Source of the DNA: Gemmatimonadales bacterium
GTDB taxonomy: Bacteria; Gemmatimonadota; Gemmatimonadetes; Gemmatimonadales; GWC2-71-9
Length of the DNA stretch: 48,821 nucleotides
NCBI GenBank assembly: GCA_013820855.1
Contig: JACDHV010000002.1
Span: 1-48,821, forward strand
Direction: 5' to 3'
The translations under genes were made by a program, and so were the position numbers. Under the pieces are notes generated by a model. The model saw only the letters and a list, made by a program, of their open reading frames with translations. It was not told the DNA's origin and made no database searches. Below, one piece after another: positions 1-17,680 of the stretch. Every line of letters begins with the position of its first letter. Position 1 is the first letter of the stretch.

Positions 1-266
1 CCATAGTACCGCGTGGTGACCTGCCCCTTGTCCGGAATGTGGACCAGCGCCCGCGCCAGGAACTCCAGCGGGTCCGCGGTCTCGGTACCGGCGGTGGGGC
101 CCTCTGGCTTGTCGGAGCGATACGTCACGGCCTTCGCGGTCCGGTCGTACGTCAGCCGCTCCAGTGCGACGGGATTCCGTGCGCAGTACCGCGCGCACAC
201 GGTAATGCCCCGCCATGGCGGGGCGTCGTGACACCGCTCACCGGCCTGCCGTGGGGTGATCCCGTT
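1..266 (-). mobile_element. IS91-family (rolling-circle Y2-type) transposase relic: internal fragment with the 5' part missing and the 3' part running off the window
   Basis: The minus-strand frame is open from 266 to 1. It translates ...ITVCARYCARNPVALERLTYDRTAKAVTYRSDKPEGPTAGTETADPLEFLARALVHIPDKGQVTTRYYG. This resembles the recalled central block of IS91/IS801 transposases (RL.yd..V.y....leF..R.l.HiP.kg..iRyYG). There is no start codon, and the frame opens directly after the hypF stop codon. Confidence 0.5.
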
Positions 267-2477
267 TCAGACCGCGAATGCCGCAAGCGCCACCTGGCCC
301 AGCGCGATGCCGCCGTCGTTCGGCGGCACGGCCCGGTTCGACCAGATACGGAGTCCGGCCGGGGCGAGGCGGGTGCGCAGCTCGCGGCTCAGCAACTCGT
401 TCTGAAATACGCCGCCCGAGAGCACGACGGTGGCGATGCCGGTGCCGTGGTGGAGCGCGAGCACCGCCGCGGCGAGACCGGCCGCGAGCCCGCCGTGAAA
501 GGCGCGGGCGACCGTGCCGCGGTCCCGGCCCGCCCGCCGGTCGGCGAGCAGGGCGGCGAGGAGCGGCCGGTAGTCCAGCACGCCGGCGGCGTAGGGCATC
601 GGGTACGGCTCGGCGGGGCCCCCGGCATGCGCGAGGTGCTCCAGCCAGACTGCCGCCTGACCTTCGTAGGTGATCTCACGCGTGAACCCGAGCAGCGCGG
701 CCGCGGTGTCGAACAGGCGCCCGGCGGAGGTCGTCGGGAAGCAGCGAACGTCCTTCGTCACCAGTTCGGCGGCACGGGCATAGCGCTCGGGCAGCTCGAA
801 CGGGGCCTCGCCGGCCGCGGGCGCCGTATCCGTCTGCGCGAGGAAGCCGGCGGCTGCCTGCACCGGCCAGCGGGCCGCGGCGTCGCCGCCGGGCAGCACC
901 GCGGGGAGGAGGTGCGCCGCCCGAACCAGCCCGCCCGCCACACTGCCGGTGAACAGCTCACAGCCCCAGATCGTCCCGTCATCGCCCCAGCCGGTGCCGT
1001 CGAGAGCGATTCCGATCACGGGCTCGTCGAGCATGCCCTGCTCGGCGAGCACGCTCGCGACGTGCGCCCGGTGGTGCTGCACCGCGTGGTGGGCCGCGGC
1101 GGGCAGGTCGAGCCCGTACGCCGACGACACGTAACCCGGGTGGGCATCATGCGCGACCATGAGCGCCGAGCGGTCCACGTCATACATCTCGAGCAGGTCG
1201 TCGATCGCGGTCGCGAAAGCTTCGCGGGCAAGCGCGTGATCGAGGTCGCCGATGTGCTGGCTCGCCACCGCTTCACCGCCGACGACCAGCACCACGGCGT
1301 TCTTCAGGTCGGCGCCGACGCCGAGCAGAGGACGCGCCGTCGGGATCCGCGCGACCACGCCGGGCGCGAGGCCGCGCGCGCGCCGCAGCACCACCGGCGG
1401 GCGCACCACCGAGTCATCCATGCGGCGGGCGATCGGCCGATCGCCTACGAGGAAGGCGTCGGCGATGCCGGTGAGACGGGCGGCGGCGTCGGAATCCTCG
1501 AATGCGATCGGCTCGCCCGACCGGTTACCACTGGTGAGTACCAGCACCGGCGGCGCGCCGGCATCGAACAGCAGGTGGTGCAGCGGGGTGGACGGGAGCA
1601 TCACGCCCAGCTCGTCGCTGTCGGGCGCCACTCCCGGCAGCTCGATGAGCGCGGGCGCGAGTACGATCGGACGGGCGACGCCGGTGAGCACCGCCTCCGC
1701 CCCGCGCTCGAGCCGCACGAGACGCTTCGCAGTGGGCAGATCGCGGGCGAGGAGCGCGAAGGGGCGCTCCTTCCGGAACTTCCGCGTCCGCAGCGCCTCG
1801 ACCGCGGCGGCGTTCGACCCATCGCAGGCGAGGTGATAGCCGCCGAGTCCCTTCACGGCGAGGATGCGGCCGCCGCGGAGCAGCGCAGCGGCGGCGGCGA
1901 CCGGATCGCCGGCATCCGATCCGGCGATCCCGCGCAGCACGTACCCCGGGCCGCAACGCGGGCACGCGACCGGCTGCGCATGGAACCGGCGGTCGGCGGG
2001 GTTGGCGTATTCGGCGGCGCACTCGGAGCACATCGGCCACTCGTGCATAGTGGTGCGCGGGCGGTCGTATGGCAGGCCGAGCATGATCGAGTACCGTGGT
2101 CCGCATTCGGTGCAGTTGATGCAGGGATAGCCGAACCGGCGGTCGGCGGGGTCGCGCAGCTCGCGCAGGCAGGCATCGCACACCGCTAGGTCGGGCGAGA
2201 TGCCGGCGGTCGGCCGTGCGGCGCCCGCGCTGTGGCGGATCTCGAACGCCGCCGGGGCGTGCGGCAGTACGGCGGAGGCATCGATCCGGTCCACCCGCGC
2301 CGCGACGGGAGCCTCGCGCTCGAGCGCCGTTGCGAAAGCGTCGAGCGTCCGCGGGTCGCCCTCCACGTGGATCTCGACGCCATCGCCGGTATTGAGCACC
2401 CAGCCGGCGATGCCATGGCTCCGGGCGAGCCGCCAGACGAACGGGCGGAACCCCACGCCCTGAACCACGCCACGCAC
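267..2477 (-). CDS. hypF: [NiFe]-hydrogenase maturation carbamoyltransferase HypF
   Basis: 736-aa ORF. It has an N-terminal acylphosphatase-like VQGVGFRP block and two Cys4 zinc-finger blocks (CDACLRE...CINCTECGPRYS and CSECAAEY...CPRCGPGY), followed by YrdC-like and Kae1-like regions. GTG start at 2477; a slightly more upstream start is possible. Confidence 0.95.
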   Translation of the reverse strand: MRGVVQGVGFRPFVWRLARSHGIAGWVLNTGDGVEIHVEGDPRTLDAFATALEREAPVAARVDRIDASAVLPHAPAAFEIRHSAGAARPTAGISPDLAVCDACLRELRDPADRRFGYPCINCTECGPRYSIMLGLPYDRPRTTMHEWPMCSECAAEYANPADRRFHAQPVACPRCGPGYVLRGIAGSDAGDPVAAAAALLRGGRILAVKGLGGYHLACDGSNAAAVEALRTRKFRKERPFALLARDLPTAKRLVRLERGAEAVLTGVARPIVLAPALIELPGVAPDSDELGVMLPSTPLHHLLFDAGAPPVLVLTSGNRSGEPIAFEDSDAAARLTGIADAFLVGDRPIARRMDDSVVRPPVVLRRARGLAPGVVARIPTARPLLGVGADLKNAVVLVVGGEAVASQHIGDLDHALAREAFATAIDDLLEMYDVDRSALMVAHDAHPGYVSSAYGLDLPAAAHHAVQHHRAHVASVLAEQGMLDEPVIGIALDGTGWGDDGTIWGCELFTGSVAGGLVRAAHLLPAVLPGGDAAARWPVQAAAGFLAQTDTAPAAGEAPFELPERYARAAELVTKDVRCFPTTSAGRLFDTAAALLGFTREITYEGQAAVWLEHLAHAGGPAEPYPMPYAAGVLDYRPLLAALLADRRAGRDRGTVARAFHGGLAAGLAAAVLALHHGTGIATVVLSGGVFQNELLSRELRTRLAPAGLRIWSNRAVPPNDGGIALGQVALAAFAV

Positions 2478-2515
2478 CCGGAGGAGCCGCGCCTCCGTCT
2501 CGACACCGCCCGGCG

Positions 2516-2803
2516 TCAGCGCTCCTCCGCGGCCGGCGGCGAAACGGTGCAGCCGCGGCCCTGCCAGCCGATGGCGACGACGCGCCCATCCTCGACCAAG
2601 ACCGGTACGGTTCGCCCGCCGCCGGTCAGCCGGTGCAGCCGCACCAGCGCCGCCGGATCGCGCTCGACGTCGTACTCCACGAACTCACGGCCCTCCCACT
2701 CGAGCCGCTCACGACACTCCGCGGTGTAGGGACAGGCCGCGCTGCCGAACAGCTCCACCCGCCGCCGTGGCTCCGGCTCGGCCGCACCGGTCCGCTCAAC
2801 CAT
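2516..2803 (-). CDS. Glutaredoxin/thioredoxin-fold small protein (monothiol CPYT motif, Cys near the C-terminus)
   Basis: Taken from the internal ATG at 2803 of ORF 2516..2953: MVERTG...VELFGSAACPYTAECRERLEWEGREFVEYDVERDPAALVRLHRLTGGGRTVPVLVEDGRVVAIGWQGRGCTV.... The ATG overlaps the upstream stop codon by 8 nt (ATGGTTGA). Confidence 0.7.
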   Translation of the reverse strand: MVERTGAAEPEPRRRVELFGSAACPYTAECRERLEWEGREFVEYDVERDPAALVRLHRLTGGGRTVPVLVEDGRVVAIGWQGRGCTVSPPAAEER

Positions 2804-3974
2804 TCGCCAGCGCCTCCAGCGCGCCCCGCAGGACATGATAGATGGACGCCTGCACCTCCTGGATCCGCGGGATGTAGTCGGACCGCACGACGAGGGCGTG
2901 ATCGGCGAGGCCGCGACGCACGATTTCGCCACCATCGTATCCGAGCAGGGCAACAGTCAGCATGCCGCGGCGCCTCGCTTCCTCGAGCGCCACGATGATG
3001 TTGGCGGAACCGCCGCTGGTGGAGATGGCGAACGCGATGTCGGCGCTGCCGCCGTGAGCGACGAGCTGGCGCAGGAAGACCAGCTCGATACCGACGTCGT
3101 TCGCGATCGCGCTCAGGCTCGCCGGCTCGAGCGACAGCGACAGCGCGGGCACCGGATGCCAGCCGGACGGCGGGGCCACGCAGTCGAGCGCGAAATCGTT
3201 CGCATCGGTGGCCGAGCCGCCGTTGCCGAAGGTGAGGACGCGGCCGCCGCGGGCCACGCGCTCGTGAATCGCCGCGGCGGCTGCCACGATCGCGCCGGCC
3301 TGCTCTGCCGCAACGGCCGCACGCAGCGCCTCATCGTCCGCCGCCTTGGCCCGGATCGAGTCGGCGACCTGCGCAGCGATCCCGCCCATCTCCTGCTTCG
3401 CCGCGCCGAGGAACGGGTAGAGAAAGCCGGCGGCGCCCACCTCATGGCCGCGCTCCCGGTGTTCGAAGAAGACGTGCACCGTCTCCCACAGGGTATGGTA
3501 GAGGATCTCGACCAGCTCCTGGTGCACGAACGGGTCGCTCGACGGTATCGGCGGAGCATAGTCACCGGCGGGGCCGCACAGCGCGAAGGTCTGTGCGCCC
3601 CGCGCGCCCGCCGCATCCAGCGCGGCATCCACCTCCGGATCGCCGGCGGGGCCGGCGAAGCCCATCACGATATCCTCGCCGGTTACCAGTGCCGGTACCC
3701 ACTCGGGAAACGCGATGGAGAGGTCGAGCGCCGGCAGCGCCCGCTTGCCGACGATCACCGGATGCACAAACTCGACGGCTACGTGCTGGGCGTCGGTGGC
3801 GCAGGCGCCGCGGCCGAACGCGAGCAACCGCCCGCCGCGCAGGAAACGCTCCGCCATTTCACGGCAGGCGGCGGCGAGCGGCTCGGCCTCGTGCGCGAAG
3901 AAGGCGGCCGACGCGGCATTGCGCGCTAGGAGCGCCTCCTCGACGATGCGCGACGGGGAGAGGAGCGACGGCAC
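2796..3974 (-). CDS. Double SIS-domain (GmhA/phosphoheptose-isomerase-like) protein of the hydrogenase cluster
   Basis: 392-aa ORF with two SIS-like halves (FGRGACATDAQHVAVEF... and FGNGGSATDANDFALD...AISTSGGSANI). GTG start 6 nt after the hypE stop. Confidence 0.8.
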   Translation of the reverse strand: MPSLLSPSRIVEEALLARNAASAAFFAHEAEPLAAACREMAERFLRGGRLLAFGRGACATDAQHVAVEFVHPVIVGKRALPALDLSIAFPEWVPALVTGEDIVMGFAGPAGDPEVDAALDAAGARGAQTFALCGPAGDYAPPIPSSDPFVHQELVEILYHTLWETVHVFFEHRERGHEVGAAGFLYPFLGAAKQEMGGIAAQVADSIRAKAADDEALRAAVAAEQAGAIVAAAAAIHERVARGGRVLTFGNGGSATDANDFALDCVAPPSGWHPVPALSLSLEPASLSAIANDVGIELVFLRQLVAHGGSADIAFAISTSGGSANIIVALEEARRRGMLTVALLGYDGGEIVRRGLADHALVVRSDYIPRIQEVQASIYHVLRGALEALANG

Positions 3975-3980
3975 GGCGGT

Positions 3981-5018
3981 TCAACAGATCCTGGGGAGGG
4001 GATCGCCGACGAGCATGTCGACGATACGGGCGCCGCCGTACGGCGCCGTCGAGAGCACCGCGCCGGCGGGCTCGGTGCGGATCTCGCCGATCAGCGCGGC
4101 CGCCTCGCCGCCGGGGGTCGCTCGCACAGCGGCCAGCGCGGCGTCGGCGACCTCCGGAGCGAGCACTGCGAGGAACTGCCCCTCGTTGGCGATGTGCAGC
4201 GGATCGAGCCCGAGCAGCTCACACGCGCCGCGGACCTGGTCGCGCAGCGGGATCATCTCCTCCAGTAGCCCCACACCGAGCCGGGTGTCGACGGCCAGCT
4301 CATTCAGTGCGCTCGCCACGCCGCCGCGGGTCGGGTCGCGCATCCAGCGGAGCCCGTCGGCTGCGACGTCGAGCAACCGCTCCACGAACGGCAGCACCGG
4401 ACGCGTGTCGGAGCAGAGGCTCGCCTCGAAGTCGAGCTCGCCGCGGGCGAGCAGGATGGTGATGCCGTGGTCGCCGATCGGCCCGGAGAGGAGCACCCGA
4501 TCGCCCGGCCGGACCGCCGCGGGCGAGAGCCGGGCCCGCGGGTCGACGATGCCGAGACCGGTCGTGGTGATGTACATCCCGTCGGCCTTGCCGTGCTCCA
4601 CCACCTTCGTGTCGCCGCCGACGACGCCGACGCCCGCCCGCTCGGCGGCCGCAGCGATCGCCCGCACCTCGGCTTCGAGCACCGACGCCGCGAGCCCCGC
4701 CTCGAGCACGAGCGTGACCACGAGCGCGGCCGGACGGGCAGCCGCCATGGCGAGATCGTTCAGGGTTCCGTTCACCGCCAGTTCGCCGATCGACCCGCCG
4801 GGAAAGCGAAGCGGCCGCACCACGAAGGCGTCGGCCGTGAGCGCGACCCGTTCGGCGCCGAGCTCGAGCACGGCGGCGTCCATCAGGGGACCGAGGAGCG
4901 GTCCTCCGAGCAGCGGCGCGATGAGCCCCTCGACGAGCCGGCGGCTCGCCTTGCCGCCCGCCCCATGCGCCATTTCGATCTGCGGGTCACGGAAGCGGAC
5001 CGCGCCGGCGCTTCTCAT
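3981..5018 (-). CDS. hypE: Hydrogenase maturation protein HypE
   Basis: Internal ATG at codon 45 of ORF 3981..5150. The N-terminus is MRSAGAVRFRDPQIEMAHGAGGKASRRL and the C-terminus is the diagnostic ...DPLPRIC. ATGA overlap with the hypD stop. Confidence 0.95.
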   Translation of the reverse strand: MRSAGAVRFRDPQIEMAHGAGGKASRRLVEGLIAPLLGGPLLGPLMDAAVLELGAERVALTADAFVVRPLRFPGGSIGELAVNGTLNDLAMAAARPAALVVTLVLEAGLAASVLEAEVRAIAAAAERAGVGVVGGDTKVVEHGKADGMYITTTGLGIVDPRARLSPAAVRPGDRVLLSGPIGDHGITILLARGELDFEASLCSDTRPVLPFVERLLDVAADGLRWMRDPTRGGVASALNELAVDTRLGVGLLEEMIPLRDQVRGACELLGLDPLHIANEGQFLAVLAPEVADAALAAVRATPGGEAAALIGEIRTEPAGAVLSTAPYGGARIVDMLVGDPLPRIC

Positions 5019-6160
5019 CCGGCCGCGGCGGCCGGCGCGGGAGCCGCGTCTTCCTCCAACCGGGCGCGCCGGTGCGCGAAGTTGTAGTAGGCGGCGCACG
5101 CGCCCTCGGAGGACACCATCAGGGCGCCGACCGGATGCTCCGGCGTGCACTCGCGTCCGAACAGCTTGCAGCGGTGCGGCTTGAGCACGCCCTTCAGCAC
5201 CTCACCGCACTGCGCCGCCTTCGGATCGGTTACCCGGACACCGGGCAGCTCGAACCGGCGCTCGGCGTCGAAGTCGGCGTAGGCCGCTGAGACACCGAGC
5301 GCCGACTGGGAGATGAAGCCGAGTCCCCGCCACTCGAAATACGGCCGCAGTTCGAATGTCTCAGCCATTGCCTGGAGCGCGGGGAGGTTTCCCTCCCACG
5401 GCACCACCCGAGCGTACTGGTTTTCCACCTCCGCCCGGCCCTCCCGGAGCTGGCGCAGGATCATGACGATTCCCTGCAGGACGTCGAGTGGCTCGAAGCC
5501 GGACACGACGATCGGCCGGCCGTAATCGCGGGCCACGAATTCGTACGGACGGCAGCCGATGACGGTCGAAACGTGCCCGGGGCCGATGAATCCGTCGATG
5601 CGCATGTCGGGCGAATCGAGGATGGCGCGGATGGCGGGAATGATCGTGACGTGGTTGCTGAAGACGGTCAGGTTCGGCACGCCGAGGCTGCGGGCGCGCC
5701 GCAGCGTCAGCGCAGTGGACGGCGCCGTGGTTTCGAAGCCGATCGCGAAGAAGACGACCTGCCGATCAGGGTTGTCGCAGGCAAGCTTGAGCGCGTCGAG
5801 CGGCGAGTAGACCATCCGGATGTCGGCGCCGCGCGCGATGTGCTCAAGCGGACTGCCGCGGCGCCCCGGCACCCGCATCATGTCGCCGAACGCGGTGACG
5901 ATCGCGCCGTGCTCGACCGCCAGGGCGAGCCCGTCGTCCACGCGGCCCATCGGCAGCACGCACACCGGGCAGCCGGGGCCGTGCACCAGCTCGATGCTGT
6001 CCGGCAGGAGATCCTCGAGCCCGAAGCGATAGATCGCATGCGTGTGGCCGCCGCACACCTCCATGAACCGATAGTGGCGGCCGGGCTCCATGAGCCGGCG
6101 GATCTCGTCGGCGGTCCGGCGGATGAGCTGCGGGTCGCGGAACTCGTCCACGTACTTCAT
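5015..6160 (-). CDS. hypD: Hydrogenase maturation protein HypD
   Basis: Internal ATG at codon 115 of ORF 5015..6502: MKYVDEFRDPQL...EVCGGHTH...GPGCPVCV...FETTAP...GPGHVS. The upstream 114 codons are Arg/Gly-rich junk. ATGA overlap with the preceding gene. Confidence 0.95.
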   Translation of the reverse strand: MKYVDEFRDPQLIRRTADEIRRLMEPGRHYRFMEVCGGHTHAIYRFGLEDLLPDSIELVHGPGCPVCVLPMGRVDDGLALAVEHGAIVTAFGDMMRVPGRRGSPLEHIARGADIRMVYSPLDALKLACDNPDRQVVFFAIGFETTAPSTALTLRRARSLGVPNLTVFSNHVTIIPAIRAILDSPDMRIDGFIGPGHVSTVIGCRPYEFVARDYGRPIVVSGFEPLDVLQGIVMILRQLREGRAEVENQYARVVPWEGNLPALQAMAETFELRPYFEWRGLGFISQSALGVSAAYADFDAERRFELPGVRVTDPKAAQCGEVLKGVLKPHRCKLFGRECTPEHPVGALMVSSEGACAAYYNFAHRRARLEEDAAPAPAAAAG

Positions 6161-6411
6161 GGGACCGCCTCCCCCGCCGCGACCAGGCCGATGGCGACAC
6201 CCATGTGCACCAGCACGACGTCGCCCGGGCGCGCGTCCGGCACGAAATCGAGCGCCACCCCGGCGCGCGCACCGGTGCGGTCCTCGACCGTGGCGATGCC
6301 GGCCGGGGCGTCCAGCGCAATCACCCGGGCGGGGACCGCGACATCGCCGCAGGTGGTGCAGCCGTCCTGTTCCAGCGTACAGGTGCCGAAGCGGGTCAGG
6401 TCGTCGGTCAT
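6157..6411 (-). CDS. HypC/HupF-family chaperone, variant copy without the N-terminal MC motif
   Basis: Internal ATG at codon 135 of ORF 6157..6813: MTDDLTRFGTCTLEQDGCTTCGDVAVPARVIAL...GDVVLVHMGVAIGLV. The C-x-T-C-G-D block and the C-terminal VLVH.G.A block resemble HupF/HypC-like proteins. ATGA overlaps at both ends. Confidence 0.7.
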   Translation of the reverse strand: MTDDLTRFGTCTLEQDGCTTCGDVAVPARVIALDAPAGIATVEDRTGARAGVALDFVPDARPGDVVLVHMGVAIGLVAAGEAVP

Positions 6412-6674
6412 TCGAATTGGTATCCCTCGACTTCCTCGGCCGCCAGCGTCGCCTCGCCGAGCATGGTGAGCAGACGGAGCTGTTCCTCGGCCTGCTCGGC
6501 ACTGATGCGGCTCATGGCGAAGCCGACGTGAATCAGCACCCAGTCGTCCACCGCCAGGCCGTCGGGACGCAGCAGATCGACGTTCACCTTGCGGCGAACG
6601 CCGGTGACGTCGACGACGGCAAAACTCGGCTCGGCCGCGAACTCGACGATGCGGCCCGGGATGGCGAGACACAC
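6408..6674 (-). CDS. hypC: Hydrogenase maturation chaperone HypC
   Basis: 88 aa beginning MCLAIPGRIVEF, the canonical HypC N-terminus, followed by ...DDWVLIHVGFAM. GTG start. Confidence 0.9.
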   Translation of the reverse strand: MCLAIPGRIVEFAAEPSFAVVDVTGVRRKVNVDLLRPDGLAVDDWVLIHVGFAMSRISAEQAEEQLRLLTMLGEATLAAEEVEGYQFE

Positions 6675-6686
6675 GGGCGCGGCCGC

Positions 6687-6788
6687 CTACATGTCCCGCA
6701 TCTTGAGGTAGCGCCGTATTTCGGGATACTGGTGCACCAGCAGCATCCCCACCCCCGCCGCCACCGCGAGCAGCACGATCCGGCCCAT
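6687..6788 (-). CDS. 33-aa single-pass membrane micro-protein, absent from the ORF track
   Basis: Read by hand: ATG at 6788, TAG at 6689-6687. It encodes MGRIVLLAVAAGVGMLLVHQYPEIRRYLKMRDM. A purine-rich GAGAGGCGGTGG sequence lies upstream. It fills the only sizeable gap between the protease gene and hypC, with a hydrophobic helix followed by a basic tail. Confidence 0.45.
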   Translation of the reverse strand: MGRIVLLAVAAGVGMLLVHQYPEIRRYLKMRDM

Positions 6789-6802
6789 GACACCACCGCC
6801 TC

Positions 6803-7645
6803 TCATCTGGCACTCTCGTTTGAGGGTGACGCCGGCCACTCGCCGGCCGTCAGGTCCTGCACCAGCTTCTCGACCAGCCGCACCGCGCCGGCGACCGCGG
6901 TCTGCACCGGCGCGCTCAGCCGAGTGATGATTGCGGTCGGGTCGTGGTCTTCCGGAAACTGCTCCGGCTCGCAGCCGACCACCAGGGTTCGGGGTGGCTC
7001 CCCGCCGAGCCCGCGCACCAGGTGCAGGACGCGCACGGGGTCCATGCCGTGCGTCTCGACCGTTGGCGGCGCCGCATCGTCGAGCTCCGGCTCGAGCACG
7101 AACAGCGTGCCGGGTGCCTCGCCGCGCGGCATGGCATCGATCAGGATTGCGGCGTCGTAACCGTTCTGGAGCGCGTAGGCGAGATCGATGCCACGGATGC
7201 CGAACTCCCGGACCGTTACCCCCGGAGGCCAGCGCCGTTCCACGAGCGCCTGCGCAACCACCACACCGAATCCGTCGTCGCCCAGGAAGACGTTGCCGAT
7301 ACCGGCGACCAGGATCCGCGGCGCGCCGCGGGCCATGTCGTCATCGAGCGGCAGCGGCTCGACCTCGTCGGGCGCGAAGAAGAAGCGATGCGCCGGGAAC
7401 CGGCCTTCGCCGAGATCGCGACCCGGATCGTCGTTCACGGTGACGGCGAGCATCAGCTCGCCGCCGATGTCCTGTTCGATCGTCTCCACACGGGCGGTGC
7501 GGCCGGCGAGCACCATGTCGAAGGCGTCGCGGCCGGACCGCGGCCGGAGCCTCACCATGCTGCCGGTTCGCAGCTCGACACCGGCCACCTCGATGTTGGT
7601 GGGGGCGGGCCGGGCCGCGTCGCTCCAGAAATCCGCGCCGCTCAT
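6803..7645 (-). CDS. Hydrogenase maturation endopeptidase (HyaD/HupD family) with an in-frame ~103-aa N-terminal domain of unknown function
   Basis: The ATG at 7645 overlaps the upstream stop (ATGA). Residues 104-280 carry RILVAGIGNVFLGDDGFG...ILIDA...VETHGMDP, typical of the protease. Residues 1-103 (MSGADFWSDAARPAPTNIEVAGVELRTGSMVRLRPRSG...FFFAPDEVEPLP) have no recognised family. No stop codon separates the two parts, and there is no SD before the internal ATG at 7336. Confidence 0.85.
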   Translation of the reverse strand: MSGADFWSDAARPAPTNIEVAGVELRTGSMVRLRPRSGRDAFDMVLAGRTARVETIEQDIGGELMLAVTVNDDPGRDLGEGRFPAHRFFFAPDEVEPLPLDDDMARGAPRILVAGIGNVFLGDDGFGVVVAQALVERRWPPGVTVREFGIRGIDLAYALQNGYDAAILIDAMPRGEAPGTLFVLEPELDDAAPPTVETHGMDPVRVLHLVRGLGGEPPRTLVVGCEPEQFPEDHDPTAIITRLSAPVQTAVAGAVRLVEKLVQDLTAGEWPASPSNESAR

Positions 7646-8667
7646 TCGGCGCCGACGACGCGCAGCTCGCGCACCGCTCCGTGCAGGCGGGACAGCTCCT
7701 CCGGACCGAGCGCCATGCAGCGGTCGAGGATCTCGCGCGCCCGGGGATCTGAGTCGCGCATCTCGGCGCGCTCCTCGTCGGTGAGCGCGAGGATGTTCAG
7801 GATGAGGAGCTGATCGATCTCGCCGCCGTCGAAGAGGTCGCCGGGGCTCTCGGGGGCGATCCGGGGATAATCTCCGAGAATGATCGGGGCGGACAGCAGC
7901 GTGTGGCGCTCGCCAAGCTCGCCCACGAGCACGGGCCAGGCGCCGATGTTGCGGCACGCGGCGGCGGCGGCGGCGAGCTCCGCGGGCGGGTCGGTGAGCG
8001 ATACGAAGGCGCCGCCATTCGCCTGGACGGTGGCATGAGTCGAGATGAGCGCCCTCCGCTGCGCCGCCTCGCGACTGCCGCCGCTCCACGGCGTCGTGTT
8101 GGCGATTTCGATTCGGAGCCGCCAGAGCCCCGGCTGCACCGCCACCGCGCGGAGCGTGACGGCGCCCTGGATCCCGTCCCACGACCGCACCACGGCGCCG
8201 ACCGGCCGCCCCTCCTCGAGGACCGGCTCCTCGGCGGTCCCGGCGGCGATGTCGAGCGGCACCAGCCGCGGCGTTTCGAGTGCCGCCGGCGCCAGATCGT
8301 CCAGGATGACCTGGCGCTCGACCGCCTCCTCCCAGGCGAGGTGGCGGCGTCCGCCGGCGACCAGCTCGTCCACGTACCGTCGATTTCCATCCGCATCGCA
8401 CGCAACCCGTCGGTCGACGACCTGAAGGAACCGCACCCGGACCCGCAGCCGTGCCGCAGCCGGGTCGGCAGCCTCGAGGAGGCACTCGGTGACGATCCGC
8501 CAGGCGTCATCACCGCCGCGGGCGTCGCTCCACGCCTGCGGGTACACGCCACCGAAGGTCCAGCGCTGGCGGTTCTTCAGCGCGGAACGGCGGTACGGCC
8601 AGAGCAGGTAGCCCTCGTAGAGCACCGCCTGCGCGATGCGCTCGAGCGCGGCATCGGAGCCGCTCAT
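7642..8667 (-). CDS. 341-aa conserved-looking protein of unknown function in the hydrogenase operon
   Basis: ATG-initiated ORF that starts 1 nt after the preceding stop, and its own stop overlaps the next start (ATGA). Globular composition; no motif recognised. Confidence 0.8.
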   Translation of the reverse strand: MSGSDAALERIAQAVLYEGYLLWPYRRSALKNRQRWTFGGVYPQAWSDARGGDDAWRIVTECLLEAADPAAARLRVRVRFLQVVDRRVACDADGNRRYVDELVAGGRRHLAWEEAVERQVILDDLAPAALETPRLVPLDIAAGTAEEPVLEEGRPVGAVVRSWDGIQGAVTLRAVAVQPGLWRLRIEIANTTPWSGGSREAAQRRALISTHATVQANGGAFVSLTDPPAELAAAAAACRNIGAWPVLVGELGERHTLLSAPIILGDYPRIAPESPGDLFDGGEIDQLLILNILALTDEERAEMRDSDPRAREILDRCMALGPEELSRLHGAVRELRVVGAE

Positions 8668-8668
8668 G

Positions 8669-8893
8669 TCAGGGGGGGGAGAGGTTGGGCATGCGTGGGT
8701 CGATCGGGTTCCGGTTCTTGGCGTTGATTCCGGTGGACCGGGCGGCGGTGGAGGTGCCGTCGGGCAGATGCCCGTCCTGGGCCTCGTAGTTGCCGGGCGA
8801 GTTGCCCTGCTTGACGCCCTTGACGTGCGTGGGCGCGCCCGGCGAGGTCTGTGGCTTGCCGACGGTCAGGTTGTTCGACTGTTTCGACTTCAT
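8669..8893 (-). CDS. 74-aa hydrophilic, low-complexity (N/Q/K/G/P/S/T-rich) protein
   Basis: Internal ATG at codon 38 of ORF 8669..9004, preceded by a strong SD (GGGGGAGGTGGCACGATG): MKSKQSNNLTVGKPQTSPGAPTHVKGVKQGNSPGNYEAQDGHLPDGTSTAARSTGINAKNRNPIDPRMPNLSPP. ATGA overlap with the upstream gene. Confidence 0.6.
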   Translation of the reverse strand: MKSKQSNNLTVGKPQTSPGAPTHVKGVKQGNSPGNYEAQDGHLPDGTSTAARSTGINAKNRNPIDPRMPNLSPP

Positions 8894-9552
8894 CGTGCCA
8901 CCTCCCCCGGTTCGGACGACGCCGGCGCCGCGCGGCGCCGCAGATCGTCGAAGAACAGATCCAGTTTCTCCCATACGGTATCGCCGCCGCTGAGACCCTT
9001 CCACTCGCCGCGCAGCAGGGCGACGAGGCGATAGCAGACATCGATCGGGACGAGCCAGCAGTCGCGCGCCCCCCGCGCCCGGTTGACGAGCACCGCCTCG
9101 ACGTCGCTCTGCAGCTCACGGATTACCGGGTGCGCGGCTTCGAGCGCGGACCACTCCGGTGGGTCGATGGTCGCGTCCGTCGGGCCCAGCGCGCCCGGGA
9201 ACACCGCCACCGGCCCGCTCTCGGAATGCCGGACGAGGAATGCGAGCGCGACCGGAATCCGGAGCGTCTCCCAGACAGCGTCGTCGTGTGCCAGCTCCGG
9301 GAGCGCCTGAAGGCGCTCGGGAACCAGCCGGTAGCGTCCGCCATGCGTCGCCGAGAGGTCGAGCACCATGGCGCAGGGCCGGCAGGCGCAGCGCAGCAGG
9401 CCGGCCGACAGTTCCACCAGATGCTGATGCTCGGGCGGAATCGGTGTGGCGCAGAGATCGCAGCGTTCGGGCGCCCCCGGATCATCCGCGGAGCGCGGCG
9501 GTGCCGCGGCAGTGGCACCGCGCCGGATCAGACCGCGCAACCGGCCGGTCAT
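8890..9552 (-). CDS. 220-aa Cys-rich protein (recalled to resemble DUF5947-type proteins of group 1h clusters)
   Basis: Internal ATG at 9552 with an ATGA overlap to the NifU-like gene. The N-terminal region carries CDLCATPIPPEHQHLVELSAGLLRCACRPC, five Cys arranged like a metal site. Confidence 0.75.
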   Translation of the reverse strand: MTGRLRGLIRRGATAAAPPRSADDPGAPERCDLCATPIPPEHQHLVELSAGLLRCACRPCAMVLDLSATHGGRYRLVPERLQALPELAHDDAVWETLRIPVALAFLVRHSESGPVAVFPGALGPTDATIDPPEWSALEAAHPVIRELQSDVEAVLVNRARGARDCWLVPIDVCYRLVALLRGEWKGLSGGDTVWEKLDLFFDDLRRRAAPASSEPGEVAR

Positions 9553-10085
9553 CGCCCGTTGCCGAGCTGCACCAGCATCGGGGCGGCGGGCGGCGCGGGT
9601 GCGGAAGCGCCGTTCTCCGCCTCGATGCCCGTGAGCTCCGGCGCGGCCCGGAGCACCGCCTCCTCGACCGAGCTGTGCAGCGTAACGGCCGACGACGGGC
9701 ACCCCTTGCAGCTGCCGGTGAGCCGCACGCGCGCGATGCCGCCGTCTACGGCGAGCAGCTCGACATCGCCGCCGTGCGAGCGGATGTAGGGCCGCACCTC
9801 GTCGAGCGCCGCCCCGACCCGCGCCTCCACCGCATCGGGATGCAGCTCGTGCAGCATCAGCAGATGACCCACGAGCGGATCGGCGGTGAAGCGGTCCAGC
9901 AGGCCGGGGCCGCCGACATCCGAGGCGGCAGCCACGATGCGGGCGAGCGCCGCGCCGTAGAGCTCGACGATTCCCTGCACCGCCGCGAGCGCGGCGTCGC
10001 GGGCGGCGGGATCCTCGATCAGTTCGACCTGCGCGAGCAGCGCCTCGACCTCGGCGGCCCGCGCATCGAGCGACGGGTCGCTCAC
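9549..10085 (-). CDS. NifU C-terminal-domain (Nfu-like) Fe-S scaffold-type protein
   Basis: GTG at 10085 overlaps the hhyL stop (GTGA). The sequence is MSDPSLDARAAEVEALL... and the C-terminal half carries LDEVRPYIRSHGGDVELLAVDGGIARVRLTGSCKGCPSSAVTL, the NifU/Nfu signature with CxxC. Confidence 0.85.
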   Translation of the reverse strand: MSDPSLDARAAEVEALLAQVELIEDPAARDAALAAVQGIVELYGAALARIVAAASDVGGPGLLDRFTADPLVGHLLMLHELHPDAVEARVGAALDEVRPYIRSHGGDVELLAVDGGIARVRLTGSCKGCPSSAVTLHSSVEEAVLRAAPELTGIEAENGASAPAPPAAPMLVQLGNGR

Positions 10086-11881
10086 CCGCCCAGCCCGTAC
10101 TGTGACGAATGCACCTGCTCGAGCACCTTGCCGTTGCCGAGATACATGTGCACGCCGCACGGGAGGCAGGGATCGAAGCTGCGCACGGCGCGCATGATGT
10201 CGATGCCCTTGAAGTCGTCGGGGCCGTTCTCCTCGAAGATCGGCATGCCCTGCACCGCATCCTCGTACGGCCCGGGAGTCCCGAGACTGTCGCGGGGGCT
10301 GCCGTTCCAGGGAGTCGGCGGGTAGGGGTGATAGTTGGCGATCTTGCCGTCGCGGATCACCATGTGATGCGAGAGCACCCCCCGCACCGCCTCGTGGAAG
10401 CCGCAGCCGATGGCGTTCTCCGGCACCTTGAAATCGGTGAACGTCTTGGTCCTTCCGGCCCGCACCTCGTCCATGGCCTTCTCGAGGAAGAAGATGGCCT
10501 GCGCGGCGGCGTACGCGATGAAGTACGCGCGCGCCCGGTCCCGCTCGATGGTGTTGGACCACTGCGGGATCTTCCACTCGAGCGTGGCCGCGGGATGCTT
10601 GAGGCTCTTCGGCAGATTGATCTGCACGCTGTGCCCGGTGGCCTTCACGTAGCCGGTGTCGACGGTCCCGGCGAGCGCGGTGGCCCAGAAGCGCGCGAGC
10701 GGACCGCCGCCGGTGTCAAGCGCGAGGTGATCACCGCTCTGGGGATGGAACCAGCGCGGGCTCATGACCCAACTGTACTTGTCGTCGAAGTTCCGCTTCT
10801 GGGGGCGCGGAATCGTCGTCTGGTTCCACGGATGCCGCCGGTCCACCGGGTTCCCGAGCGGATCGGTGGACACGAACATCTCATCGTTCTCCCAGTCGTC
10901 GTAGAACGAGCTGCCGAGCAGGATGCGGATGCCGAGATTTATGTCCACCAGATCGGTGGTGATGAGCTTGCCGTCCACGACGATGCCCGGGGTGACGTAC
11001 ATCGCGTTGCCCCACTCGTTCATCGTGCGGTACTGGTAATCGCAGACGTCCGGGTTCTGGAACGCGCCCCAGCACCCGAGCAGGATGCGCCGCTGCCCCA
11101 CCCGCTCATATCCCGGCAACGCCTCGTACCAGAAATCGAAGATGTCGTCGTTCATCGCGACCGCTTCCTTGACGAAGTCGAGGATGGAGACGAGGCGCGA
11201 CAGGTAGTCGGTGAAGACCTGGGTGGTGGCGATGGTGCCGACGCCGCCGGGATAGACGGTGGACGGATGGACGTGGCGCCCTTCCATGAGGCAGAACATT
11301 TCGCGGGTGACGCGGCTGACCCTCAGCGCCTCCCGGTACACCGCCCCGGTGAAGGGGTTGAAGGCCCGCATGATGTCGCCGATGGTGCGGTATCCGTGGA
11401 TTTCGGAGTGCGGCGCGGGGGTGCGGTTCGCCTTGTCGAGGACGCCCGGATTGGTCTGCTTGACCATCTCCTCGCACCAGTCCACGAAGACCAGGTTGTC
11501 CTGGAAGATGGTGTGGTCGAACATGTACTCGGCGGCCTCGCCGAGGTTCACGATCCACTCCGCCAGGTTGGGCGGCTGGATGCCGTACGCCATCTGCTGG
11601 GCGTAGGTGGAGCAGACGGTGTGGTTATCGCCGCAGATGCCGCAGATCCGGCTGGTGATGAAGCCGGCGTCGCGGGGGTCCTTCCCCTTCATGAAGACGC
11701 TGTAGCCGCGGAAGATGGAGGAAGTGCTGTGGCACTCCGCGACCTCCCGGTTCTCAAAATCGATCTTGGTGTAGATGCCGAGATTCCCGACGATCCGGGT
11801 GATCGGATCCCAGTGCATCTCGACCAGCTTGCCGCGCCCCGCCGTGGAGGGGGCACCGGCGGCTACGTCTCGGGTGGCCAT
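10082..11881 (-). CDS. hhyL: [NiFe]-hydrogenase large subunit, group 1h (formerly group 5) type
   Basis: Internal ATG at 11881, preceded by a GAGGAG SD. The L1 motif is TSRICGICGDNH and the L2 motif is SFDPCLPCGVH, followed by a 21-aa C-terminal extension (MYLGNGKVLEQVHSSQYGLGG) of the kind removed by the maturation protease. 599 aa. Confidence 0.95.
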   Translation of the reverse strand: MATRDVAAGAPSTAGRGKLVEMHWDPITRIVGNLGIYTKIDFENREVAECHSTSSIFRGYSVFMKGKDPRDAGFITSRICGICGDNHTVCSTYAQQMAYGIQPPNLAEWIVNLGEAAEYMFDHTIFQDNLVFVDWCEEMVKQTNPGVLDKANRTPAPHSEIHGYRTIGDIMRAFNPFTGAVYREALRVSRVTREMFCLMEGRHVHPSTVYPGGVGTIATTQVFTDYLSRLVSILDFVKEAVAMNDDIFDFWYEALPGYERVGQRRILLGCWGAFQNPDVCDYQYRTMNEWGNAMYVTPGIVVDGKLITTDLVDINLGIRILLGSSFYDDWENDEMFVSTDPLGNPVDRRHPWNQTTIPRPQKRNFDDKYSWVMSPRWFHPQSGDHLALDTGGGPLARFWATALAGTVDTGYVKATGHSVQINLPKSLKHPAATLEWKIPQWSNTIERDRARAYFIAYAAAQAIFFLEKAMDEVRAGRTKTFTDFKVPENAIGCGFHEAVRGVLSHHMVIRDGKIANYHPYPPTPWNGSPRDSLGTPGPYEDAVQGMPIFEENGPDDFKGIDIMRAVRSFDPCLPCGVHMYLGNGKVLEQVHSSQYGLGG

Positions 11882-11895
11882 GGCGGGTCTCCTCG

Positions 11896-12954
11896 TCAGC
11901 GATTCAGGTGGCGCGGCGCGTAGCCGGTCGTGAGCGCCGGGCGGTTGTGGCGCCACTTCGGCTCCTTGTTCACCGTGTCGTTGGTGATGGCGCGGAGCCG
12001 GCGGAAGAGCTTGCCGTACGCGCCGATCATCGTGGAGGACACGGTGCCGCCGGGCGGCTGGTCCATGAACGGCATGAACTTGTCGGGGAAGCCGGGCATG
12101 GTGCAGCCGATGCAGATGCCGCCGACGTTGGGGCAGCCCCCGATTCCGTTCATCCATCCGCGCTTCGGCACGTTGCAGTTAACGACCGGACCCCAGCAGC
12201 CGATCTTCACCTGGCACTTGGGGCTGTTGTAGTCGTGCGCGAAATCGCCCTGCTCGTAGTAACCCGCGCGGTCGCAGCCTTCGTGCACCGTCTTGCCGAA
12301 GAGCCAGGTGGGACGGAGCTGGTCGTCGAGCGGAATGACCGGCGCCTTGCCCGCCGCCTGGAAGAGCAGCCAGGTGAGGGTCTCCATGAAGTTGTCGGGC
12401 TGGACCGGGCAGCCGGGGACGTTCACGATGGGGAGGCCGCCGGCGGAGCGGAAATCCCAGCCGAGGTAGTCGGCGAGACCCATGCAGCCGGTGGGATTGC
12501 CGGCCATGGCGTGAATCCCGCCGTAGGTGGCACAGGTGCCGGCGGCGACGACGCCCCAGGCGCCGGGCGCCAGCCGGTCGATCCACTCGTTGACCGTGAT
12601 CGGCTCGCCGGTGGCGGGGTCGTTCCCCATCGAGGTCCAGTAGCCCTCGCCGTTGATCTGCTCGTTGGGAATGGAGCCCTCGATGACGAGCACATACGCC
12701 GCACCGAGCTCGCCGCGCGCCGCCTTGAAGAACGGCTCGAGGAAGTCGCCCTGCCCTCCGCCCATACTCGGCGAGAGCACCTTGTTGTGCAGGTGCACCT
12801 TCGGGAGCCCGGGGATCAGGCCGAGTACCACGTCCTCTATGCTCGGCTGGGTGGCCGCCGTGATGGAAATGGTGTCGCCGTCACAGCTTAGCCCTTCCGA
12901 AATCCACAGGACGTGGACCTCGTCCACCCCGCCGCCGCTGGTCGTCTCATCCAT
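11896..12954 (-). CDS. hhyS: [NiFe]-hydrogenase small subunit, group 1h type, without a Tat signal
   Basis: 352 aa: MDETTSGGGVDEVHVLWISEGLSCDGDT...GTCATYGG...PGCPVQPDN...CWGPVVNCNVPKRGW...CPNVGGICIGC. There is no RRxFxK twin-arginine leader. A strong GAGGAGGA SD precedes the ATG. Confidence 0.95.
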   Translation of the reverse strand: MDETTSGGGVDEVHVLWISEGLSCDGDTISITAATQPSIEDVVLGLIPGLPKVHLHNKVLSPSMGGGQGDFLEPFFKAARGELGAAYVLVIEGSIPNEQINGEGYWTSMGNDPATGEPITVNEWIDRLAPGAWGVVAAGTCATYGGIHAMAGNPTGCMGLADYLGWDFRSAGGLPIVNVPGCPVQPDNFMETLTWLLFQAAGKAPVIPLDDQLRPTWLFGKTVHEGCDRAGYYEQGDFAHDYNSPKCQVKIGCWGPVVNCNVPKRGWMNGIGGCPNVGGICIGCTMPGFPDKFMPFMDQPPGGTVSSTMIGAYGKLFRRLRAITNDTVNKEPKWRHNRPALTTGYAPRHLNR

Positions 12955-13125
12955 CGGATGTCCTCCTCGCCGCTGCCGTCAGGCGCTTGTCGCGCGGAAT
13001 GCCAAACGGGTCCGGGCCGCTCCTGCCGGGATCAAGCTCGCCCGGAGGAGCGGCCCGACCGGGCCGCCACTGCTGCATCGTGACCTGCATCGAACGCCAC
13101 TCCCATCGCCGCCACCCCCTTCATT

Positions 13126-13143
13126 CCATACTACCCATACTAC
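13126..13143. repeat. Perfect tandem 9-bp direct repeat CCATACTAC x2 in the hhyS/hypA divergent region
   Basis: Read directly from the sequence. It lies in the only AT-richer patch of the intergenic region, just downstream of the putative minus-strand -10 element. Confidence 0.85.
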
Positions 13144-13156
13144 ACTAGGACCACCC

Positions 13157-13170
13157 TTGACATTCGTCAA
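13157..13170. promoter_or_regulatory. Perfect palindrome TTGAC-ATTC-GTCAA (FNR/FixK-type TTGA-N6-TCAA geometry) that also supplies -35-like hexamers for both divergent promoters
   Basis: On the plus strand, TTGACA (13157-13162) is followed by 18 nt and then TATGGG (13181-13186), just before the hypA GTG. On the minus strand, TTGACG (13170-13165) is followed by 17 nt and then TAGTGT (13147-13142). The assignment is by sequence resemblance only. Confidence 0.35.
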
Positions 13171-13192
13171 CACGCGGCCGTATGGGTCAGGG

Positions 13193-13558
13193 GTGCACGA
13201 GCTGTCGATCGCGATGAGTCTGGTGGAGGCGGCCTCCGAGGAGGCGCGCCGGCACGGCGACGTGCGGGTGGAGGCGCTGCACCTGCGGATCGGGGTGCTG
13301 GCCGGCGTGGTGCGGGAGGCGCTGGCGTTTTCGTTCGAGCTGGCCGCCGAGGGCACCCCCGTTGCCGGGGCGAGACTGATCATCGAGGAGGTTCCCGTGA
13401 CCGTGGCGTGCCCTACCTGCCAGGCCGAGCGGGCGCTCGCGTCGCCGCAGGAGTTCCGCTGTCCGGTCTGCGGGACGGCGACCGGGCACGTTGTGGCCGG
13501 CCGCGAGCTCGTTCTCACCGCCCTGGAACTGGAGGATCATGACTCCGCGAATCGTTGA
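13193..13558 (+). CDS. hypA: Hydrogenase nickel-insertion protein HypA
   Basis: GTG start giving (M)HELSIAMSLVEAA..., with the Zn site CPTCQ...CPVCG. 121 aa, taken from the frame of ORF 12653..13558. Confidence 0.9.
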   Translation: MHELSIAMSLVEAASEEARRHGDVRVEALHLRIGVLAGVVREALAFSFELAAEGTPVAGARLIIEEVPVTVACPTCQAERALASPQEFRCPVCGTATGHVVAGRELVLTALELEDHDSANR

Positions 13559-14195
13559 GGTCCGGCGCGACCTCCTCCGCAAGAACGACCTGCTCGCCCA
13601 TCAGCTCCGATCGCGCTTCGCCGCCGCCGGGGTCACGGTCGTGAACCTCGTGTCGGGCCCTGGCGCCGGCAAGACCGCGCTGCTCGAAGCGACCCTCGCC
13701 GCGCTGCACCCCGGTCGCCGGGTGGCGGCGCTCGTCGGCGACCTGGCGACCGATAACGACGCGCGGCGGCTGGGACGCAGCGGGGCGCCGGTGCGCCAGA
13801 TAACCACCGGCACGGTCTGCCACCTCGACGCTGAGATGGTCGCCGCCGCGCTCGACGACTGGGACCTCGGGGCGCTCGACCTGCTGTTCATCGAAAACGT
13901 GGGGAATCTGGTCTGCCCGGCGAGCTTCGACCTGGGGGAGAGTCTGCGGGTGGTGCTGTTCTCGGTGACGGAGGGCGAGGACAAGCCGCTCAAGTACCCG
14001 ACGATCTTCAACGGCGCCGACCTGGCGGTGCTGACGAAGCTCGATCTCGCCGAGGCGGTCGAATTCGACCGGGCCGCCGCCTACCGCAACGTGCAGGCGG
14101 TGCGGCCGGGGCTCGAGATCGTCGAGGTGTCGGCCAAGCGCGGCACCGGGCTCGACGGGTGGCTCGCGCGGTTCAGCGCCCGTATTTCCGCATGA
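13539..14195 (+). CDS. hypB: Hydrogenase nickel-incorporation GTPase HypB
   Basis: Internal ATG after a GGAGGA SD, overlapping the hypA 3' end by 20 nt. It carries the P-loop SGPGAGKT, the ENVGNLVCPASFDLGE block and LTKLDL. There is no His-rich N-terminus. Confidence 0.95.
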   Translation: MTPRIVEVRRDLLRKNDLLAHQLRSRFAAAGVTVVNLVSGPGAGKTALLEATLAALHPGRRVAALVGDLATDNDARRLGRSGAPVRQITTGTVCHLDAEMVAAALDDWDLGALDLLFIENVGNLVCPASFDLGESLRVVLFSVTEGEDKPLKYPTIFNGADLAVLTKLDLAEAVEFDRAAAYRNVQAVRPGLEIVEVSAKRGTGLDGWLARFSARISA

Positions 14196-14927: not shown

Positions 14928-15177
14928 GTTTAGGTCGTGGTGGTGGACGAGGTCTGGACCTCGGTGGGCTCCACCAATTTCGACAACCGGTCGTTCCGGC
15001 TGAACGACGAGGCCAACCTCAACATCCTCGACGCCGGGCTCGCCGCCGGCCAGGCGACGGTGTTCGAGGCCGACAAGGCGAGAGCCCGCCGGATCACATT
15101 CGATGATTGGCGCCGAGCGCCCCCGCCGGGAGCGGGCCGTCGAGTGGCTCGCGGGCCTGCTGCGGCTCCAGCTTTAG
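14889..15177 (+). pseudogene. C-terminal relic of a phospholipase D / cardiolipin synthase family gene (second HKD motif onward)
   Basis: The plus frame reads ...[12 protein letters not shown][TAG][29 protein letters not shown]. This is an H-x-K-x4-D...GS.N.D.RS motif with a stop codon (14931-14933) exactly where the catalytic Lys codon belongs. A frameshift in the C-run near 15120 separates ...ITFDDWRR from the typical tail [16 protein letters not shown] (TAG at 15175-15177). Everything upstream of ~14889 is missing. Confidence 0.75.
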
Positions 15178-15185
15178 GAGAGTCC

Positions 15186-16505: not shown

Positions 16506-16554
16506 GTCCCGGAATCAGTAGGGCGGTCGCAACCCGTCGCCGCATCAGTTCCGC

Positions 16555-17636: not shown

Positions 17637-17680
17637 CCTGGACCGTACCCCGCCGCGGCCCCGGACGTCCAGGTGGATGA

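Follow-up and report, generated by a model that had tools for sequence, protein, structure and literature searches.

Group 1h [NiFe]-hydrogenases (Hhy) are regarded as the main biological sink of atmospheric H2 and as enzymes from which soil bacteria gain energy for survival. Their large subunits carry L1 and L2 motifs that are conserved in group 1h/5 and distinct from those of groups 1-4 (PMC5364354), and their small subunits lack a twin-arginine (Tat) signal and bind the proximal iron-sulphur (FeS) cluster through three Cys residues and one conserved Asp. Among described systems, the HofK/HofG enzyme of Cupriavidus necator H16 (PDB 5AA5) is encoded on a proteobacterial megaplasmid and has been described as low-affinity, and the Hhy of Mycobacterium smegmatis (MSMEG_2720/2719) needs HhyE (MSMEG_2718) for activity, a putative FeS electron-relay protein that occurs in truncated forms in a subset of species (PMC6883350). 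In the phylum Gemmatimonadota, the only hydrogenase shown experimentally to oxidise atmospheric H2 belongs to a different class, the group 2a (Huc-type) enzyme of Gemmatimonas aurantiaca, which is expressed in growth rather than persistence. Here we describe a hydrogenase locus on a Gemmatimonadales contig (JACDHV010000002.1, assembly GCA_013820855.1), of which the whole 48,821-nt stretch analysed is called the window, and establish its gene content, intactness, class, host taxon and gene packing. The region very likely represents an intact, probably functional group 1h ('actinobacterial-type') uptake hydrogenase cluster on the chromosome of an uncultured Gemmatimonadales bacterium.

The two structural genes lie next to each other on the minus strand. 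The large-subunit gene hhyL (10082-11881; 599 aa; Pfam NiFeSe_Hases) encodes exact matches to both signatures, the L1 motif TSRICGICGDNH and the L2 motif SFDPCLPCGVH, which a sequence-only reading of this DNA had pointed out and which are those given for group 1h/5 (PMC5364354); a 21-residue C-terminal extension follows His578. In a search of PDB sequences, HhyL matched C. necator HofG (5AA5_C) with 1069 bits and 75% identity over 568 aligned residues, whereas all other solved hydrogenases (groups 1a-g, 2a, 3 and 4) scored ≤160 bits, including Huc (group 2a) with only 124 bits. L1 and L2 are identical in the two proteins, and the mature C. necator large subunit ends at the same His. The small-subunit gene hhyS (11896-12954, minus strand; 352 aa; Pfam Oxidored_q6 and NiFe_hyd_SSU_C) has the Shine-Dalgarno sequence AGGAGG upstream, and its product matched HofK (5AA5_A) with 587 bits, the alignment to mature HofK beginning at HhyS residue 9. 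Every Cys motif is common to HhyS and HofK, SCDGDT stands opposite GCDGDS with the Asp conserved, and the CDGD of HhyS occupies the position of CxxC in other hydrogenase classes; we infer that the proximal cluster of HhyS has a Cys3-Asp ligand set. No twin-arginine motif was found in the first 70 residues of HhyS, as in the likewise Tat-less C. necator enzyme, and with a stop codon just 8 codons ahead of the ATG, a hidden leader is impossible. HhyS also has no C-terminal transmembrane helix (maximum KD19 1.16), and no cytochrome b family is represented among the 17 cluster genes (Pfam). The earlier proposal of a cytosol-facing enzyme with no Tat leader is borne out by these features, and judged by its sequence the enzyme is of the oxygen-tolerant, cytoplasm-facing, H2-oxidising type.

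As HydDB cannot separate group 1h from group 1l (Hyl), we weighed the possibility that HhyL comes from 1l, 1f, 2a or some other class. Groups 1h and 1l share <40% identity, so that the 75% identity to 5AA5 settles this point, and the score against group 2a Huc is low. Furthermore, 1l loci have five small transmembrane genes between the subunit genes, whereas hhyS and hhyL are only 14 nt apart here. Another class is thus extremely improbable, and the group 1h membership proposed before is established by the motifs, the identity to 5AA5, the low 1h-1l identity and the short hhyS-hhyL gap, with the one reservation that our neighbour-joining tree of 83 HhyL sequences was built without 1l references. 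In this tree, HhyL of the window pairs with that of another Gemmatimonadales metagenome-assembled genome (MAG; DASUJH010000014.1, GCA_036279355.1; L082 below) beside the Actinomycetota-dominated part, whereas two further Gemmatimonadota sequences (L031 and L045) branch elsewhere and C. necator sits on another branch than the window. The host is equally clear. The cluster lies ~32 kb from dnaN (46392-47507) and dnaA (47728-48618, running off the right end of the contig), and DnaN is 90-97% identical to many metagenomic proteins, every named one of which is from a Gemmatimonadales bacterium. Because of these DnaN matches and because the nearest hydrogenase cluster also comes from a Gemmatimonadales MAG, the host is non-actinobacterial, as had been suspected from the surrounding genes. 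The contig does stem from a metagenome, and among the best 80 of 570 relatives confirmed in a genome collection (tblastn, E ≤ 1e-3), the accessory proteins score best against Solirubrobacteraceae MAGs (45-60%), as would be expected if an actinobacterial (e.g. Solirubrobacterales) hydrogenase segment had been joined to a Gemmatimonadales contig during assembly. However, a second, independent metagenome assembly (L001; GCA_020064125.1, JAITZQ014687721.1) has the same joins over ~22 kb, those on both sides of hypB included, G+C content is uniform at ~0.70 along the contig, the nearest cluster is that of L082 (HhyL 81.5-81.6%, g6 68%, HypB 80%), and several further top HhyL matches are labelled Gemmatimonadales, Gemmatimonadaceae or Gemmatimonadetes. 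The same joins, the uniform G+C and the Gemmatimonadales origin of the nearest relative make such a chimera very unlikely.

As the window has a G+C content of 70%, raw lists of open reading frames (ORFs) are crowded with shadow ORFs. Genes were therefore defined by codon-position GC, by a codon log-odds caller trained on seven operon genes, and by inspection of the start codons at each junction. This gave 15 intact collinear genes on the minus strand (267-12954), with G+C contents at the third codon position (GC3) of ~0.85-0.92, and divergent hypA and hypB on the plus strand (13193-14195). The borders proposed from sequence inspection are true gene boundaries: the stop codon of hypF ends at 267 and that of hypB at 14195. 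High-GC3 ORFs in antisense orientation (e.g. 4467-5087 and 6944-7813, both plus strand) were rejected as high-GC shadows of minus-strand genes. The second assembly contains the same genes and gene calls at 98-100% identity across the whole cluster. An Rfam gathering scan and a tRNA scan found nothing within the cluster, and a literature search on the contig and assembly accessions returned no papers.

Maturation genes make up much of the cluster. On the minus strand, hypC (6408-6674; 88 aa; HupF_HypC, 1.3e-24), whose product starts MCLAIPG, is followed by a gene for a second HypC/HupF-family protein (6157-6411; 84 aa; HupF_HypC, 1.2e-11), by hypD (5015-6160; 381 aa; HypD, 1.4e-149, profile positions 2-350 of 351) and by hypE (3981-5018; 345 aa; AIRS and AIRS_C), whose product ends in PRIC. 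The carbamoyltransferase gene hypF (267-2477; 736 aa) closes the minus-strand series and encodes five Pfam domains: Acylphosphatase, zf-HYPF (in two stretches), Sua5_yciO_yrdC, HypF_C and HypF_C_2. On the plus strand, hypA (13193-13558; 121 aa; HypA, 4.9e-25) begins with a GTG that aligns with the ATG of L082 hypA and reads MHELSI, and it is overlapped by 20 nt by hypB (13539-14195; 218 aa; cobW/HypB/UreG). The maturation endopeptidase gene (6803-7645, minus strand; 280 aa; Pfam HycI) encodes a match to NCBIfam TIGR00072 (110.6 bits) over residues 112-261, and the extra N-terminal module of ~110 aa has no family match. Signature residues are intact in HypC (MC-), HypE (-PRIC), HypA (MHE) and HypD (CGGH, GPGCPVC and GFETT). 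With full profile coverage in Pfam and NCBIfam for HypA to HypF and the protease, the statement that all six Hyp functions are present could be upheld.

Between hhyL and the protease gene lie four genes for accessory proteins, all on the minus strand. The first (9549-10085; 178 aa; NifU, 5.6e-22) overlaps hhyL by GTGA and encodes a short-form homologue of HhyE, a NifU-like protein with CKGC that ends ~20 residues past the NifU domain and is 48% identical to the N-terminal 165 residues of a long HhyE from a related locus (L067). The C-terminal CxxC/Rieske-like domain of this long protein had no match anywhere in the window. The following gene (8890-9552; 220 aa; DUF5947, 6.6e-63) encodes a protein with CDLC...H.H...CACRPC that is found in nearly all related loci and is a conserved group 1h accessory protein; it had no match at E ≤ 1 among PDB sequences. 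That DUF5947 might be the split-off C-terminal half of HhyE was ruled out, as L067 encodes a separate DUF5947 protein in addition to its long HhyE. Next, g5 (8669-8893; 74 aa), which has an ATGA overlap with the upstream gene, encodes a hydrophilic, conserved protein with no Pfam or NCBIfam match. Homologues of g5 were found by tblastn in 60 of 83 sequences, window included, with the shared motif THVxG..GN...GH..DGTST..RSTGIN..PIDP.MPNLSP; the gene adjoins that of DUF5947 in 1h clusters from Actinomycetota, Gemmatimonadota, Chloroflexota and others, whereas the acidobacterial loci lack it. The last of the four, g6 (7642-8667; 341 aa), is also conserved, with >7000 homologues, of which one from a Gemmatimonadales MAG is closest (68%), and had no Pfam or NCBIfam match and none at E ≤ 1 among PDB sequences. 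A confident AlphaFold2 (AF2) model of g6 reached a pLDDT (predicted local distance difference test) of 82.5; its sole Foldseek match in the PDB, a long one to 7s9v_A (template-modelling score 0.27, root-mean-square deviation 24 Å) was discarded as spurious, and no fold was assigned. In one g6 homologue (P0181), the C-terminus (348-449) carries the module that forms the N-terminus of the window protease (residues 6-107; 47% identity). This fusion ties g6 functionally to large-subunit processing, suggesting that g6 is probably a maturation factor acting with the protease.

Three further minus-strand genes are interspersed with the maturation genes. A 33-aa protein encoded between the protease gene and hypC (6687-6788; DUF6893, 5.9e-10, profile positions 2-32 of 32) contains the only predicted transmembrane segment in the cluster (KD19 1.94), and its gene was called at the same length in the second assembly. 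Downstream of hypE lies a gene (2796-3974; 392 aa) for a GmhA-like protein with two SIS_2 stretches, whose match to an NCBIfam gmhA-like family is below cut-off; it is 65-68% identical to proteins of two Acidobacteriota loci (L059 and L066) and is also present in 1h clusters from Acidobacteriota and elsewhere. Next comes a glutaredoxin-like gene (2516-2803; 95 aa; Pfam Glutaredoxin; NCBIfam NF041212, 76.7 bits at a cut-off of 66), which encodes the Cys form of the "Uxx-star" (seleno)protein family with Cys at the selenocysteine position. This protein extends 8 residues past the usual end of Uxx-star members.

The best 80 loci come from at least eight phyla, with HhyL identities of 74-79% and largely the same accessory genes. 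L082, the nearest relative found, has the same order as the window (hypB-hypA divergent from hhyS-hhyL-NifU-DUF5947-g5-g6-protease), likewise no DUF6084 gene, and a shared TTGACG -35 element. Identities are 84.5% for HhyS, 81.5-81.6% for HhyL, 71% for g5, 68% for g6, 65% for the protease and 80% for HypB. HhyL is still only ~82% identical, in a protein that shows 75-79% conservation across phyla, and the genes flanking hypB differ; as the L082 contig stops before the hyp genes, this comparison covers hypB through the protease. In Streptomyces clusters (e.g. L003 and L004; HhyL 77-79%), the accessory set is as in the window, with a short HhyE, DUF5947, g5 and g6 but no DUF6084, whereas g6 and the protease gene lie upstream of hhyS, the hyp genes are on the opposite strand and there is no SIS or glutaredoxin-like gene nearby. 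The two Acidobacteriota loci, L059 (Acidobacteriaceae) and L066 (Acidoferrales), have the same collinear hhyS-hypF order including the SIS and glutaredoxin-like genes, and their maturation proteins show the highest identities of the 80 loci (HypD 72-75%, HypE 68-69%, SIS 65-68%, HypF 56-57%). However, they carry DUF6084, are without g5, and had no hypAB match in their 10-kb flanks. The hypC-hypF half of the window cluster, with its SIS and glutaredoxin-like genes, is therefore arranged as in these two loci and most similar to them among the 80, whereas the structural half is closer to Thermoleophilia-type clusters. M. smegmatis Hhy, compared by description, also has a NifU-like gene directly after hhyL and no cytochrome b subunit, but its HhyE has two extra C-terminal CxxC motifs where the window protein is a short form, and its structural and maturation genes are separate operons whereas the window genes are all collinear.

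From work on related systems, we infer how the enzyme would be assembled and used. HypF and HypE would make the cyanide ligands from carbamoyl phosphate, the two HypC paralogues and HypD would assemble the Fe(CN)2CO unit and pass it to apo-HhyL, HypA and HypB from the divergent genes would insert nickel, and the endopeptidase would then cut off the 21 residues after His578. HhyL would pair with HhyS, predicted to bear three [4Fe-4S] clusters of which the proximal one is Cys3-Asp, and the enzyme would stay on the cytoplasmic side, because it has neither a Tat signal nor a membrane anchor. Electrons from H2 would exit via HhyS and probably the short HhyE, perhaps also DUF5947, to the quinone pool and aerobic terminal oxidases, and this flow would give maintenance energy in starvation. 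The electron route, the physiological role, the H2 affinity and the transcript structure are the least certain parts of this proposal.

The genes are tightly packed. Eight of the 14 junctions on the minus strand are overlapping: in seven the shared stretch is 4 nt long (ATGA or GTGA), and in one, at the glutaredoxin-like gene, 8 nt (ATGGTTGA). The remaining gaps measure 14, 1, 14, 12, 6 and 38 nt. This count takes ATG 6788 as the start of the DUF6893 gene, which gives the 32-position length of the Pfam profile and has GGGGGAG before it. From the hhyS start to the hypF stop, the series covers 12,688 nt. Elsewhere in the window, only 3 of 31 same-strand junctions overlap by our own gene calls, so that overlaps are over-represented in the series (Fisher p = 0.0014). 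The sequence-only reading had described the same packing of 15 minus-strand genes beside divergent hypAB, and with this DUF6893 start its figures agree with ours, but its wording that translation is coupled stoichiometrically is argued against by two observations: hhyS and hhyL, the only obligate 1:1 pair, do not overlap, as 14 nt containing a separate GAGGAG lie between them, and M. smegmatis has separate operons for Hhy structural and maturation genes. The 238-bp divergent region between hypA and hhyS (12955-13192) contains a palindrome, TTGACATTCGTCAA, whose arms are face-to-face -35-like hexamers, and CCATACTAC twice in tandem. A possible hhyS promoter on the minus strand consists of a -35 element TTGACG (13170-13165), a 17-nt spacer and a -10 element TAGTGT (13147-13142); at the aligned position, L082 has TTGACG, 17 nt and then TACAAT. 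The site is a candidate only, because it falls below the threshold of the consensus scan. On the plus strand, TTGACA occurs ~30 nt before the hypA GTG, and a candidate hypA transcript from it would be nearly leaderless. Overall, genes packed this tightly point to co-expression, for which a promoter in the divergent region would be the simplest source.

Whether the 15 genes are transcribed together or form two or more transcripts at different levels, for example hhyS-protease and hypC-hypF, is the point on which an alternative has most weight. The M. smegmatis precedent of separate operons (PMC6883350), the gaps of 12-14 nt that flank DUF6893 between protease and hypC, the 38-nt gap before hypF and the very different amounts in which structural subunits and Hyp factors are needed all speak for several transcripts, as do the reads of Methylacidiphilum hhyS and hhaF, which are ~40-fold apart, though these genes lie in separate clusters. 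In contrast, much as in a single operon, all 15 genes are on one strand with eight overlapping junctions and no gap >38 nt, a promoter consensus scan of positions 1-15000 gave 0 promoter-like sites, and terminator-like sites in the same region occurred at chance rate (4 versus 3.6 expected), which is neither for nor against internal signals. Several transcripts are therefore plausible, if somewhat less than probable. The use of the enzyme leaves less room for an alternative. The same O2-insensitive enzyme could be of low affinity and serve when H2 is locally elevated rather than as an atmospheric scavenger: the C. necator enzyme is 75% identical and low-affinity, so that atmospheric affinity does not follow from 1h membership, and high- and low-affinity 1h enzymes are not separated by sequence alone. 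However, consumption of atmospheric H2 has been demonstrated for 1h enzymes from Actinobacteriota, Acidobacteriota, Chloroflexota and Verrucomicrobiota, HhyL resembles Streptomyces sequences (77-79%) as closely as that of C. necator, and in the tree it lies next to the Actinomycetota-dominated part, apart from C. necator. A low-affinity role is thus rather unlikely.

Several points nonetheless weigh against a functional atmospheric-H2 hydrogenase. The window contains no nickel transporter; the promoter scan was empty; and the closest biochemically characterised enzyme, that of C. necator, is low-affinity, so an atmospheric-H2 role is not guaranteed. In addition, the cluster is without the C-terminal metal-binding domain of HhyE, and DUF6084, whose gene sits between DUF5947/g5 and g6 in most related loci and was detected in 42 of 82 of them with a profile hidden Markov model (HMM) built from 41 genes, was not found with this HMM in the window, L001 or L082. 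It follows from these two absences that the electron-relay step is least certain. The earlier description of the cluster as complete can consequently be kept for the canonical parts, all of which are present, but not for DUF6084 and the HhyE C-terminal domain, which many relatives have. A stronger claim, that the missing DUF6084 marks a defective cluster, was dropped: the combination of a short HhyE, no DUF6084 and g5 occurs in 26 of the 69 loci with enough flank, window included, and the remaining 25 are mostly from Streptomyces. The reduced accessory set is for this reason a known configuration and not a defect. Streptomyces are high-affinity H2 oxidisers. A literature search on DUF5947, DUF6084 and DUF6893 returned nothing relevant.

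An intact and probably functional 1h cluster in Gemmatimonadales matters for several reasons. The contig gives a complete, intact 1h cluster that is taxonomically anchored by dnaN and dnaA on the same contig, and this supports a role of the abundant soil phylum Gemmatimonadota in H2 scavenging. The lineage was fairly called less studied, as tests in the phylum have covered a group 2a enzyme only, though 1h genes in Gemmatimonadota MAGs are public. The reduced accessory set is seen to occur outside Streptomyces too, three conserved, uncharacterised accessory proteins (DUF5947, g5 and g6) are highlighted, and the cluster offers a defined gene set for heterologous expression. The enzyme class, the maturation pathway and the broad phylogenetic spread are already well known, and the cluster leaves the picture of the class unchanged.

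At the left boundary (1-224, minus strand), a perfect 18-nt GC palindrome, GCCCCGCCATGGCGGGGC, occupies 207-224, 42 nt past the hypF stop. As the region folds no better than shuffled sequences (z = 0.42), this predicted hairpin can count as no more than a candidate terminator. Beyond it lies a 5'-truncated fragment of an IS91-type transposase gene, which runs from 200 to 1 and off the contig end and matches Y2_Tnp (6.6e-10) over positions 111-173 of 183 only. The contig of the second assembly ends within ~70 nt of the same point, suggesting a repeated mobile element at this site. On the right side, beyond hypB, lie gene fragments, among them a C-terminal piece of peptidase S58, a phospholipase D (PLD) fragment fused to DUF2254 and truncated dehydrogenases. 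HhyL itself is rare: in a collection of 5.8 billion proteins, its nearest relative reaches no more than 82% identity and it is the single member of its 90% cluster, whereas the 90% cluster of DnaN has 284 members with a representative 97% identical to DnaN of the contig. The host lineage is thus common and the hydrogenase variant rare. A mobility remnant on the left, gene fragments on the right and the rarity of HhyL would fit an accessory island, but the G+C content is not atypical. Relatives without the cluster were sought in a metagenome collection via the DUF2254 neighbour, and only relatives of ≤57% identity were found. In a further reading, which we consider unlikely, the cluster would be a rare, lineage-restricted island in an otherwise common soil population, perhaps moved or rearranged with the aid of the IS91-type element, and would encode a streamlined Hhy (short HhyE, no DUF6084, all 15 genes in one array) in which g5 and the single-transmembrane DUF6893 are unrecognised parts of the enzyme or of its link to the membrane. 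Were that so, Gemmatimonadota would have its first group 1h oxidiser of atmospheric H2, and the cluster would give a lead on the link between Hhy and the respiratory chain.

The remainder of the window shows a few features of its own. Beside hypB, a C-terminal fragment of peptidase S58 (14173-14727, minus strand) covers profile positions 186-304, and an N-terminal fragment (23875-24207, plus strand; profile 1-60) lies 9 kb off; a full-length copy is encoded at 37840-39060 on the plus strand. An inversion or other rearrangement between ~14.7 and 24.2 kb could have split a single gene into these two fragments. Within 14937-19721, a PLD-like C-terminal piece opens a DUF2254 protein, and there are a DUF6596/tetratricopeptide repeat (TPR) protein without detectable sigma-factor domains, an 88-aa aldo-keto reductase fragment and a 176-aa NAD-binding fragment; judging from these pieces, the segment appears to have undergone gene decay or rearrangement. 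The sole match of the Rfam and tRNA scans, a full-length RNase P class A RNA (43325-43747, plus strand; 265 bits, at 43.3 kb), is located between a gene for a 1036-aa Ser/Thr kinase-TPR protein and two genes without family. In the region 45610-48618, dnaN is followed by a convergent gene for a monofunctional transglycosylase, not by recF and gyrB; such a dnaN neighbourhood is unlike the usual actinobacterial origin region.

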